DNA of 64,000 nucleotides, from NCBI GenBank assembly GCA_038245785.1, contig JBBRSB010000021.1, positions 21,322 through 85,321 on the forward strand, read 5' to 3'. The notes beneath the pieces were generated by a model. That model did not search any database. It worked only from the letters and a program-made list of their open reading frames with translations, and had not been told where the DNA came from. The translations under genes and the position numbers were made by a program. Below, piece by piece: positions 9,802-19,890 of this stretch. Position 1 is the stretch's first letter; every line of letters begins with the position of its first letter. This stretch comes from Gloeobacterales cyanobacterium (GTDB lineage Bacteria > Cyanobacteriota > Cyanobacteriia > Gloeobacterales > PMM-0068).

Positions 9802-10417
9802 CATGGATTCAATAGCGTTAGTTGTGTACATCGCTTTACGAATGTCAGCGGGGAAGGCAAAGAAGGGAATAATCCGCTCCCAATGATTCATCCAGGACTT
9901 GCTAATCGTCGGATATTGCTTGTCCCAGCGTTGGGCAAAGGTCATGAGGGCTTGTTCTGCCTGCCCATCGGTGGCAGCGCCATATACCAATTTCAGGTCA
10001 GCGGCGACAGCTTTGCGGTCTTTGTAGGAAACATAGCTCAACGCGTTACGCACCAAATGAACGATACAAAGCTGGATTTGCGTTTGAGGAAAGACCGTTT
10101 CAATCGCTTCAGGAAAGCCCGTGAGGCCATCCACACAGGCAATGAAGATATCCTTGACGCCCCGATTTTGGAGGTCGGTCAATACCGACAGCCAGAACTT
10201 GGAAGATTCATTCTGGGTCATCCACAGCCCCAATAGCTCCTTCTACCCCGCTAGATTTACCCCTAAGGCTAAGTGAATCGCTTTGTTGAGCACCCGCCCT
10301 TCATGGCGAACTTTCACCACTAGGGCATCGAGAAAGACAATCGGATAGACCGCATCGAGGCTACGATTCTGCCAGAGTTTGCGCTCCGCTTCTACCGCTT
10401 CGGTCACGTTAGAAATC

Positions 10418-10445
10418 AGGGCGGCCCCTGAGCTATGCCGAAGGG
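10418..10445 (-). repeat. 24-nt micro-element CCCTTCGGCATAGCTCAGGGG family with 4-bp direct repeat
   Basis: Removal restores VEVSHTLISNV; similar to 19088-19125. Confidence 0.7.
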
Positions 10446-11112
10446 TGTGGGACACTTCTACCCCATACAAATCGTGCAACTGTGCTTGGATATCTCGGGT
10501 CGTCATGCCACGGGCGTAGAGCGACAAGATCTTGTCATCAAAGCCGTTAAAGCGGGTCTGGCCCTTCTGGATAATCATTGGTTCAAACTCGCTGTGGCGG
10601 TCGCGCGGCACGGCAATCGCCGCTTCCCCAAACTCGCCTTTAATGGTCTTCTTGCTGTGACCGTTGCGGCGATTTTTTGGACTAACAGGCGCTGACTCTG
10701 CAGGCTCTTGTTCCAGATGAGTATCCAATTCAGCCGTTAAGCAGCGCTCGACTAAGGCTTTGGTCAATTGCTTGAAAATGCCGCCTTCCCCCATCAGGTC
10801 TTCGGGGTTACGATAGTCCTTGAGCAATTCATCAATGAGTTCCGGTCGAAAGGTCATGGTCTGTACCTCGGTGAGTTAGTTCATTAGATCTCAAGCTCTG
10901 ACCTTTGACACAAACTAATTTACACTCCCATGCATCCGGTTCGGTGGCGATCGTTCCTGCCAGATGTGCTCCTACCGAAAACCCAACAATACCGATCCGC
11001 TTTGAGTCGATGTCGAAACTGGCAGCACGACCGATGCCCCCAGATACCCCACGATCGTCGAAACTTTCTGATTCATGTCAATCGCTCCTTATTAAGTGAT
11101 AAAGAATATCCA

Positions 11113-18002: not shown

Positions 18003-18808
18003 TTAGAGCGCCACAATTAATACCAGCACAAAACTAAGAGGCAACGGTTGAAATCCTAGCAGTCTTGCCAGGGGCGTTAAGGGAATAATTAATGTGACGG
18101 CAACTCTTGCCAGCGTTGCTCCCAACAAATACTTTCCTGGCTTACTTCTAAGAATGGATTGTCGGGTACGAACTACCAGTACAACCAGCGAAGCTGAGAT
18201 CACAGACTCCAGAAACCAGCCAGTTCTGAATTGTTCTGGCTGAGCTTGCAACAGCAGCATTAGTACCCCGAAGGTGAGGTAATCAAATATTGAACTCAGC
18301 AGTCCAAACACCACCATGAAGTTGCGGATGAACTCGATATCCATGCGGCGGGGTTTGTTTACCAATTCCTTGCCTACCCGATCGGTCGCGATGGTCATTT
18401 CCGGGAAATCAGTCAATAGGTTCATTAGCAAAATCTGACTGGGCAGTAGGGGCAAAAAGGGCAGAACTAGAGAAATGCCTGCCATGCTGAACATATTGCC
18501 GAAATTAGCGCTCGTTGCCATAAACACGTATTTGAGCGTATTGGCAAATGTGACCCGTCCCTCCTTCACACCCTCGACCAAGACCTTCAGATCCTTCTCC
18601 ATCAGCACAATATCTGCTGCCTCCTTTGCCACATCATCTTTTGTAAACAGGATACTTAAGCGTTTACGGTTGAAATCGTAGGGCACTTCATCAAGTTTTT
18701 GATAGCTAGAGATGTCGAATGTCTTGTGCTGACGAATCGCTTCGTCGATCGGATTCACGTAGCCTGACTCAGACGCGGCATTTAAATAGGCGTGGAACAG
18801 GACGCGAT
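18003..18808 (-). pseudogene. mgtA: Mg2+-transporting P-type ATPase remnant with internal deletion
   Basis: NPIDEAI, VPYDFNRKRLS fused directly to DVAKEAADIVL; SANFGNMFS, FRTGWFLES. Confidence 0.8.
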
Positions 18809-18901
18809 TTAAGTGTCAGCTTTGAGATCCCTGTTTATGTTAAAGGGAAGTAATCTGCTATCTTGGGCCATGATTCAGATCTCTCACCCCATAACGATTT
18901 C

Positions 18902-19087
18902 ATGATTTGTCCTGACTGCCATTCGAGGCTGTTCACTCAACTGAAGCGCACCACCAGTTTGGGCTACACAATTTTTCGCTGCAAGTCATGTAAGCGCGAT
19001 TACAACGAGCGCACGAGGACACCCTTTAATCACCTACAAGTCCTGACTGATATCGTTTTCGAGGTCTTATTGTGCCGAGTTCGCTAA
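18902..19087 (+). pseudogene. IS6-family transposase N-terminal fragment
   Basis: CPDC..LGYTIFRCKSCKRDYNERTRTPFN zinc-ribbon start. Confidence 0.65.
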
Positions 19088-19125
19088 CCTTCGACAGAGC
19101 TCAGGGCAGGAAGCTCAGGGGCCAC
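19088..19125 (+). repeat. Compound CCTTCGACAGAGCTCAGGG micro-repeat
   Basis: Two AGCTCAGGG units in tandem/nested at the IS6-IS110 junction. Confidence 0.7.
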
Positions 19126-19575
19126 CGCTTCGCCATAGGTATTGGTTGCTTCCAGGCAAGCATGAACTTGATTGACGCCTGTCTGGTTCAGCCATTGCAA
19201 TAAGGTTTGATGTCCTTCTGGCGTATTGGTGACTACTTTTGGCTTCGGCTTTTTTCCAGGTAGAAGCAGGGCCACCTGCAATTTGTGTTTACCCACATCA
19301 ATTCCGAGAACGGCTTGTACCATCAATCTTTCCCCTTGATGTCCTTAGAAAAGGAGACTGTCCCGCAACTAAGCTTGTTCATGCAGGTTCATCTCATCGT
19401 TTGAGAGACCTAAGATGCTGTCCAGCCTGCGGATGGCAGTCAAAGACGGTAAAAGGGTTTTATCTCAGGGCCAGGCTCAAAGCCTCAGCTTGTCTCAAAC
19501 TCTCTTTTACCGCTGACTCTTTAAGGCTAAGAGTCATTTGTACCAGTTTGTATCTGGTTGGTCTCAAGATACAAG
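19120..19575 (-). mobile_element. IS110 (IS621-like) left end with truncated recombinase (ORF 19326 to ~19120)
   Basis: LGIDVGK, CLEATNTY (DEDD RuvC N-terminus); left end begins CT-TGTAT at 19575. Confidence 0.85.
19356..19536 (-). ncRNA. Putative IS110 bridge RNA
   Basis: 5' hairpin (19514-19536); target loop closed by CGGTAAAAG/CTTTTACCG; donor loop closed by GACTG..CCGCA/TGCGG..CAGTC; guide segments include the core CT. Confidence 0.8.
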
Positions 19576-19890
19576 CTTGTCAAAGGGGAGTTCTTTCCAC
19601 TGACAGCCGAAGTACAACAGTTTTAAGATGTAGTTGAAGATGACATGCAAAGTGAGCTTTGGCTGAGGACCGCGAGTCCCCCCTGTGCAGGTGGGGCAAG
19701 ACAAATTCTTCAAACTGTTCTAAAGTCAAATGAGTGGGAATCCCTTGACTGGATTGAGATTGAGCCATCGAAACTCCTAACGACTGTCAAACTCATAAGA
19801 CTAAAGTCTTTTTGGTTTGAATGATGGAAAGGCAAGTATCTAAAGGCTTTCAGACAAATTCACACAGCAGGGAAAACCCGCAACCAGTTG
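19576..19890 (-). pseudogene. IS5-like transposase 5' fragment, frameshifted and interrupted by IS110
   Basis: LTLEQFEEFVLPHL..RGPQPKL..IFNYILKLLYFGCQWKELP across a frameshift. Confidence 0.6.

Follow-up and report, generated by a model that had tools for sequence, protein, structure and literature searches.

A truncated IS621-type IS110 insertion sequence in a Gloeobacterales cyanobacterium retains an intact bridge RNA that is probably aimed at a small dispersed host repeat

The closest described counterparts of the element reported here are IS110-family insertion sequences that are directed to their targets by a bridge RNA, above all IS621 (Durrant et al. 2024, PMC11208160; Hiraizumi et al. 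2024, PMC11208158), with which we compare by published description and not by direct alignment. As set out in the available text of PMC11208160, the left target guide of IS621 is 9 nucleotides (nt) long and reads, in the same sense, as the left flank followed by the core; the right target guide, of 4 nt that can be extended to 7, base-pairs with the core and the flank to its right. The same rules govern the donor loop, in which the right guide pairs discontiguously. A sigma-70 promoter spans the junction of the excised circle, and cutting right-end sequence removes its -35 box (same source). In the accessible portions of three reports, IS110 targeting of short repeats is established for repetitive extragenic palindromic (REP) sequences (PMC11208160, PMC12288879, bioRxiv 10.64898/2026.03.19.712850). 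Here we analyse a 64,000-nt stretch of DNA ("the window") from a Gloeobacterales cyanobacterium (contig JBBRSB010000021.1, positions 21,322 to 85,321 of the forward strand). We conclude, with a probability of about 80%, that positions 19575-19121 on the minus strand are the left part, now orphaned, of an IS110 insertion sequence of the IS621 type, in which the bridge RNA is intact and is aimed at a ~24-nt micro-repeat of the host. Positions are window coordinates, minus-strand features are read in descending order, and G000 denotes the window's own genome (255 contigs).

The IS621-type left end, free of coding sequence, extends over 19575-19327 and lies upstream of the recombinase open reading frame (ORF) on the same strand. 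A sequence-only reading had already placed a bridge RNA here, and rereading the minus strand confirmed every coordinate that it gave for the core, the guides and the TGTAT motif (Table 1). The left flank reads CCCCTTTGACAAG|CT, and flank plus core are identical to the left target guide at 8 of 9 positions, which is the match that had been claimed. By the IS621 rules the target loop is predicted to be programmed for AGACAAG-CT-CAGGG, with CGACAAGCTCAGGG and CGACAAGCTCAGGGACC as predicted targets. The left donor guide ACAGCATCT equals the right end of two relatives described below, L006 and L014, the window's own right end having been lost; the donor loop appears to be programmed for the element's own circle junction ACAGCAT-CT-TGTATC (predicted donor ACAGCATCTTGTATC).

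G000 contains one copy of the window element and, on contig C7, a full-length cousin that is 65% identical (L002). A 79%-identical full-length copy (L006), with a recombinase of 320 amino acids (aa) that we call P0001, is present in genome G042, the sole case among 401 genomes of the phylum, and in genome contigs a protein-seeded scan picked out 79 loci, including L014 of Oculatella (95% protein identity to P0001). Eighteen aligned leaders from several phyla follow the same plan: CT|TGTAT, 5' hairpins, then two internal loops that each surround a hairpin. RNAalifold recovered the donor-loop helices with covariation, and the minimum-free-energy fold of the leader has a z of -3.05 relative to shuffles. 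In a MAFFT alignment of 10 relatives (A2), from which the window was left out and for which the structure was set by hand, 82.5% of cells were paired as against 34-52% when the partners were slid; compensatory changes occurred in 18 of 28 pairs, and none of 500 shuffles reached the observed values. A covariance model built from A2 minus two unsupported pairs (R1) matched 19358-19515 of the minus strand over its full length with 125.7 bits (E 1e-28) and without a non-standard pair, although part of this score is plain similarity since the ten training sequences include two with 79% identity to the window. This was the only match in the 64 kb. In 68 of 87 sources R1 places the element directly upstream of a recombinase gene and on its strand, and 91% of cells were paired in a larger alignment that was itself fitted to the model (A3, 63 distinct rows). 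The bridge-RNA fold, for which the sequence-only reading had named covariance-model alignment as a check, is therefore borne out by R1, by covariation and by the folding z score.

The guides can be read in the same way across the family. Left ends were placed by their TTGTAT-type motif, independently of the guides (none was found in 9 loci), and right ends by the left donor guide; a model match and a left end occurred together in 53 elements, 43 of them distinct. Over the 7 non-core bases, identity between left guide and left flank in the 43 distinct elements was 5.05, compared with 2.30 +/- 0.18 in 2000 shuffles (maximum 3.02), and this concordance holds despite several off-by-one alignment errors. 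For the right guide, 24 elements were compared over the 3 nt that follow the core, with an identity of 2.54 as against 1.53 +/- 0.13 in shuffles; these elements are not fully independent because many have CTACG in common. The right target guides of relatives match their right flanks over 4-7 nt. The L002-type right ends at C2:140 and C53:12452 are next to CTAATCAcc, a 7/7 match to the L002 right target guide, and 7-nt right guides are therefore in use in this group. An empty paralogous site of L014 (L196) reads ...gggAAGCAAG-CT-ACGggcaata, which is exactly both flanks of the L014 insertion. Finally, the differences between the window and L006 are concentrated in the guides: 6 of 13 guide columns differ, as against 21 of 146 other columns (Fisher p = 0.010), and the donor guide is unchanged.

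In the host, the programmed target appears to belong to a ~24-nt micro-repeat that is dispersed in the genome (CCCTTCGACAAGCTCAGGGACCAC), of which it is the GACAAG variant. The pattern CCTTCG-N3-9-GCTCAGGG has 26 copies in G000, compared with 0-2 for five scrambled or reordered controls. The repeat takes the form CCCTTCG..GCTCAGGG. One of its sub-families, ..GCTCCCTTCGACTCCGCTCAGGGAGC.., misfits the left guide; a second is CCCTTCGRC-NNN-GCTCAGGGRCCAC, and the programmed target is the GACAAG variant of this one. Only that rare variant fits the left guide. Seven copies of CCCTT[CT]GACAAG are present in G000. G000 has 4 copies of the 13-mer GACAAGCTCAGGG, where permuted words have 0.15 on average and 0 of 5000 reach 4. 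This amounts to about 27-fold over-representation, and two of the four sites stand in the full repeat context ..TTCGACAAGCTCAGGGACCAC..; GACAAGCTCAG has 12 copies against 2.43 for permuted words. The proposal of the sequence-only reading that (A)GACAAG-CT-CAGGG resembles the micro-repeat thus stands, in the form of an over-represented 13-mer that is the GACAAG variant of a 26-copy family. Of the two copies on which that proposal leaned, at 19088-19125 and 10418-10445, the likeness is limited to the right half of the target, as their left halves, CGACAGAGCT and CGGCATAGCT, fit the left guide poorly.

The targets of the window element and of its 79%-identical relative are distributed by host. 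The 12-mer GACAAGCTCAGG, from the window target, has 7 exact copies in G000 and none in G042 or in G414 (Oculatella), whereas AAGCAAGCTACG, from the relative's target, has none in G000, 28 in G042 and 9 in G414. With one mismatch allowed, the relative's target gave 68 matches in G042 as against 13 for a reversed control, and all 14 of the contexts among the matches listed belong to one repeat, ..cggaacaccgctRcgcggAAGCAAGCTACGgaact... We regard this as natural guide reprogramming: the two elements share scaffold and donor guide but differ in their target guides, and enrichment of each target is confined to the genome of its own host.

Other repeats of this kind were seen in passing. The interval C126:167603-170929 of G414 holds three exact and two one-mismatch copies of the relative's target 12-mer within ~3.3 kb. 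The sub-family gctcCCTTCGACTCCGCTCAGGGagc often stands in head-to-head pairs that form long perfect palindromes (G000 C15:39662/39685 and C34:52419/52442). The L002-type IS110 targets another, longer dispersed repeat, ..ggaatttRtaccgaggtTGTCTGC-CT-AATCctcttaa.., of which G000 has three empty copies (C2:209, C3:223065 and C53:12339), and more left or right ends of the L002-type element lie at contig ends (C9, C52, C2:140 and C53).

Copies of the window element in other populations were read in Logan contigs from runs X2, X3, X5 and X11, each reading being limited to the window parts that are covered. X3 gives a 1247-nt contig over 19121-19587 with 12 differences, which goes on in frame past 19121 as ...GEAVAEALHAGGHLV (...AEALHAGGHLV), like L006; the gene is therefore uninterrupted in another population. 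One difference (19514) falls in the 158-nt RNA core, and the 31-nt spacer that precedes the start codon has four substitutions plus a 2-nt deletion. X2 gives a 1033-nt contig, 99% identical, with 4 differences over 19111-19587. On its gene side a 23-nt unit, GCCGCCCTTCGGCAAGCTCAGGG, with GCC on both sides, is inserted exactly at the 19121 site; this unit is absent in X3. On its flank side the same 12 nt as in the window, CCCTTTGACAAG, stand in another context, being followed by 30 nt identical to C44:3010. As the X2 flank runs into this sequence, which is single-copy in G000, C44 looks like the empty allele of the X2 insertion. That allele reads ...ggacacGACAAG-CT-CAGGGcgagg (cacGACAAG-CT-CAGGGcgagg), and its CTCAGGG agrees with the right target guide at 7/7 positions, the flank here being that of the other allele. 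The sequence-only reading had expected full copies to be followed by CAGGG, and to this the C44 allele gives an indirect answer in its favour, although no full copy's right end was seen. X11, an RNA library, gave one 151-nt contig over 19333-19481 without differences, which does not show transcription. No full-length copy of the window element was found in 14 genomes of its order, and L006 was the only one among the 401 of the phylum; an exact-pattern scan of metagenome contigs gave 0 matches, plasmids gave no match, and the best matches of a protein-seeded metagenome scan had 57-62% identity. The empty site at C44:2950-3030 lies inside a hairpin-like element (gtacgggtttggcac ... gtgccaaacccctgta) with an apparent 21-27-nt nested insert relative to the X2 allele, and C174:1237 has the segment gcctgccggacacgacaRag in common with C44.

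The recombinase of the window copy had been described as truncated, and this is so, since PF01548 (DEDD_Tnp_IS110) is matched only at profile positions 1-62 of 155. PF02371 is absent from it, both domains are present in P0001 and in the L002 recombinase, and homology to relatives ends near 19121. No right end of this type was found in the window or in G000; where an autonomous IS110 has a complete recombinase and both ends, this copy has a recombinase fragment and one end. In L006 and L002, joining the right end to the left end would form TTGAC(T/C)-17 nt-TATCTT. The window copy keeps the -10-like TATCTT and has lost this junction promoter, because the -35 box sat in the missing right end. The flank of the window copy has a TTGACA, but with a spacing to TATCTT of just 6 nt, and the minus strand of 19250-19850 gave no promoter-like site. 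The copy cannot excise and insert by itself, and is a relic that is probably dead.

By analogy with IS621, we infer that an intact copy would excise as a circle, at whose junction a -35 box from the right end and a -10 box from the left end would come together as a sigma-70 promoter, and that the recombinase-RNA complex would insert this circle at the CT of the micro-repeat. If the micro-repeat is the landing site, full copies would be expected to have the joint flanks CCCTTYGACAAG-CT-CAGGGRCCAC, i.e. a CCCTTYGACAAGCTCAGGGRCCAC repeat. In the window copy the recombinase gene breaks off after ~67 codons, at a micro-repeat insertion or rearrangement, and the donor half-site and the -35 box have been lost together with the right end.

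Several observations weigh against a micro-repeat target, and they can be turned into a rival account in which the bridge RNA is genuine but the micro-repeat is not its natural landing site, so that the guides would specify a few unrelated sites with only the right arm CTCAGGG in common. There is no perfect 14-mer target in G000; of the 7 sites with one mismatch only 2 or 3 are copies of the micro-repeat, and 4 lie outside the CCCTTCG..ACCAC family. The strict 11-mer AGACAAGCTCA, with the first A included, is not enriched (5 copies, permuted mean 2.76). The abundant sub-family ..GACTCCGCTCAGGG.. misfits the left guide, and both of the repeat copies cited earlier (19088-19125 and 10418-10445) fit it poorly. 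Translated, the left flank of the window copy can be aligned with native IS5-like protein (ELPFDK vs ELPI(D/E)K, i.e. ELPIDK/IEK) and may be IS5-like coding sequence; since it fits such sequence, the window junction may be an off-target insertion or a secondary rearrangement. The two alleles differ upstream of GACAAG (27 nt in C44, CCCTTT in X2), and no right-end junction with these guides was seen in the genomes or runs searched, the CAGGG right flank being known by way of the C44 empty allele. Against this rival stand the ~27-fold excess of the 13-mer and the full repeat context of two of its four copies; moreover, the 12-nt left flank runs 3-5 nt past the guide and is the same as the repeat's left arm, and the G042 relatives and the L002 type each sit in a dispersed repeat of their own. 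We therefore regard a target outside the repeat as unlikely, though it is the alternative that we take most seriously. A more radical objection is that the leader is merely a structured 5' untranslated or regulatory region of a transposase gene, with guide-like matches that are coincidental. In its favour, the bridge RNA is known here from sequence alone, and Rfam 15 gave no match at gathering threshold in the whole window; an E-value scan of 18900-19800 gave two chance-level matches only, both on the plus strand, and no bridge-RNA family. Because of this, assignment to the bridge RNAs rests on our own model, which includes two 79%-identical relatives, and this too counts against our interpretation. 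The objection is already contradicted, however, by guide-flank concordance far outside shuffles in 43 distinct elements, by the concentration of substitutions in guide columns, and by a layout that is the one shown experimentally for IS621 (as described in the available text of PMC11208160); we give it almost no credence.

It is also conceivable that transcription of the orphaned bridge RNA continues and that, in trans, the RNA serves the L002-type recombinase, retargeting L002 or driving micro-repeat rearrangements; the sequence-only reading had suggested that the RNA could act in trans if transcribed. Its core is intact and is one base (19514) off the open-frame X3 copy, and the L002 donor ACGGCAT-CT-TGTATC is one base off the window donor guide. 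Read-through from the upstream same-strand IS5-like fragment could possibly supply a transcript. The available text of two reports states that the IS621 bridge RNA works in trans (PMC11208160) and that integrated IS621 loci express it weakly (PMC13626964). On the other hand, the -35 half of the promoter has gone and no promoter-like site was found on the minus strand of 19250-19850. The L002 recombinase, the only related one in G000, is just 70% identical over 67 aa and, relative to L006, carries two 8-aa insertions, one in each catalytic domain (PF01548 and PF02371); sharing of a bridge RNA between orthologs this distant is not known to occur. The suggestion of action in trans thus found no support, and we think it very improbable. 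Our preferred interpretation remains that of a relic whose intact bridge RNA is aimed at the micro-repeat.

Table 1. Features of the IS110 relic and its surroundings in the window.
Feature	Position	Strand	Remarks
Left target half CCCTTTGACAAG adjoining the core	19576..19587	-	may be micro-repeat left arm or native IS5-like codons P-F-D-K
CT core dinucleotide, left junction	19574..19575	-	read from sequence; CT|TGTAT left end common to most relatives
TGTAT after the core	19573-19569	-	sequence past the core reads TGTATCTTGAG
Left end, 5' part	19516..19573	-	-10-like TATCTT at 19571-19566; fold-derived 5' hairpins 19558-19542 and 19536-19514
Bridge RNA core	19358..19515	-	target-binding loop 19512-19447; donor-binding loop 19427-19367; covariance model R1
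Left target guide AGACAAGCT	19487..19495	-	8/9 identity to left flank plus core TGACAAGCT
Right target guide CCCTGAG	19464..19470	-	pairs with CT-CAGGG; aligned with relatives' guides
Left donor guide ACAGCATCT	19413..19421	-	same as guide in L006 and L014, whose right ends read ...GACAGCATCT
Right donor guide GAACAAG	19374..19380	-	own left end CTTGT(A)TC: 5 contiguous pairs, or 7 with one bulged base
IS110 DEDD recombinase, N-terminal fragment	19121..19326	-	~67 codons, ends ...TYGEAVA; ORF spans 19326-19084
IS5-family (DUF4096/DDE) transposase, N-terminal fragment, frameshifted; left flank	19588..19768	-	PF13340; homologs 288 aa
Zinc-ribbon transposase, N-terminal fragment	18863..19087	+	PF12760, below cut-off; broken at 19086/19087
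Composite micro-repeat CCTTCGACAGAGCTCAGGGCAGGAAGCTCAGGGGCCAC	19085..19125	+	at recombinase break; 92% identical to G000 C14:79404-79440
Micro-repeat copy in frame in IS256-family ORF (10243-10857)	10418..10445	-	PF00872: 190 residues on 181 profile positions, ~8 aa inserted

The window copy lies in a graveyard of insertion sequences, of which we take it to be one relic because other truncated transposase genes flank it on both sides: the IS5-like fragment and, beyond the broken recombinase gene, the zinc-ribbon transposase, which we take to be IS6-like. Micro-repeat sequence stands at both of these breakpoints and at the point where the IS110 gene is truncated. The ambiguity of the left flank could be explained either by micro-homology recombination or by insertion at a near-cognate site, and native sequences of both flanking genes resemble the target in a way that is suggestive (IS6-like ..TACAAG-CT-CAGTT.. 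and IS5-like ..TTGACAAG..). For the zinc-ribbon gene, an X5 contig shows it going on as ...CGCTA|CAAGCTCAGTTACCGG, by which the native breakpoint sequence at 19086-19087 (ACAAG-CT-CAG) is seen to be close to the programmed target over 10 nt. For the IS5-like gene, no C-terminal part is present in G000, in which the other copy stops short of the site, and no intact copy was found among 301 genomes at E <= 1e-30, an empty result that is uninformative. We considered whether the breakpoints at 19087 and 19588 are products of bridge-RNA recombination and rejected this, as neither junction is built like an IS110 end. A further sign of rearrangement is a C-terminal fragment of a P-type cation ATPase at 18003-18758 (PF00689), which has no N-terminal part and adjoins the insertion-sequence fragments.

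The micro-repeat is also found inside transposase genes. Apart from the in-frame copy in the IS256-family ORF (Table 1), the L002 IS110 gene has two in-frame micro-repeat insertions of 8 aa each relative to L006 (G000 C7:26570 and 26945), and a micro-repeat stands at codon 67 of the window IS110 gene, where X2 has 23 nt and X3 none. Its presence in transposase ORFs suggests that a very small element has moved recently. The way in which such repeats move has been a question since their description in 2008, and the X2/X3 polymorphism together with the in-frame insertions gives a concrete handle on it. One may speculate further that the micro-repeat is itself a very small mobile element and that it and insertion sequences target one another, the repeat serving as landing pad for IS110, inserting into transposase ORFs and marking every breakpoint of the graveyard; in a bolder form, orphan bridge RNAs would persist as guide-only modules that steer a related recombinase, or repeat-to-repeat rearrangements, in trans. 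We offer this as a long shot.

Small repeats with somewhat similar habits have been noted in other cyanobacteria; the small dispersed repeats (SDR) of Nostocaceae were reportedly described by Elhai et al. in 2008 (Genome Res 18:1484) as 21-27 nt long, dispersed and nested, with signs of recent mobility. The micro-repeat appears to share such traits, with 26 dispersed copies, 24-nt in-frame units within genes and a 23-nt unit that is present in X2 and absent in X3. By the descriptions in the available text of PMC5861425 and PMC4390886, it is like the SDR in being very small and dispersed, with signs of nesting and recent mobility, the comparison being one of description and not of sequence families. 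The available text of PMC5861425 records no SDR-like repeat outside Nostocaceae in HIP1-rich genomes. Our literature search turned up no link between IS110 and either cyanobacterial bridge RNAs or the small repeats of Elhai et al., and the supplements of PMC11208160 may already list the ortholog group.

Compared with IS621 of E. coli, as far as the available texts describe it, the window element has the same organization: the RNA lies in the left end, upstream of the DEDD/Tnp recombinase gene (PMC11208160, PMC11208158), and 5' stem-loops are followed by a target-binding and then a donor-binding loop. Each 9-nt left guide appears to have the sense of its left half-site together with the CT core, and each right guide would pair with the core and the half-site that follows it, discontiguously in the case of the donor loop; the family layout puts the -35 box of the junction promoter in the right end; in both cases the natural targets are, or in ours would be, small genomic repeats (PMC11208160). 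Unlike IS621, the window element has a host of another phylum, its predicted target is AGACAAG-CT-CAGGG instead of ATCAGGC-CT-AC, its right target guide is apparently 7 nt, and it is without most of the recombinase gene and the right end. Enterobacterial family members have only 37-41% protein identity to full-length P0001, and a search of E. coli genomes seeded with a Klebsiella relative found a different IS110 element, not IS621. For genome editing, the element is one more ortholog with a right target guide that is likely 7 nt, and brings no new mechanism. In the IS1111/seekRNA systems, target choice by DEDD recombinases of the IS110/IS1111 superfamily is likewise RNA-guided, and the guide RNA lies downstream of the gene; unlike these, the window RNA precedes the gene, within the left end, as it does in the IS110 group. 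Closer in habit are ISPpu9 and ISPpu10 of Pseudomonas putida, IS110 elements that insert in copies of a short conserved repeat, as described in the available text of PMC12288879 and bioRxiv 10.64898/2026.03.19.712850; in our case, however, the repeat is ~24 nt, is not a REP palindrome and itself lies in ORFs, and no insertion of the window element was seen with both flanks. The range of natural IS110 targets would thus be extended to a new kind, from REP-type palindromes to a ~24-nt repeat that is also found inside genes. In all other respects the element is an ordinary member of the known IS110 bridge-RNA system, for which targeting of repeats by such RNAs is already described, and the more unusual side observation is that its target repeat resides inside transposase genes.

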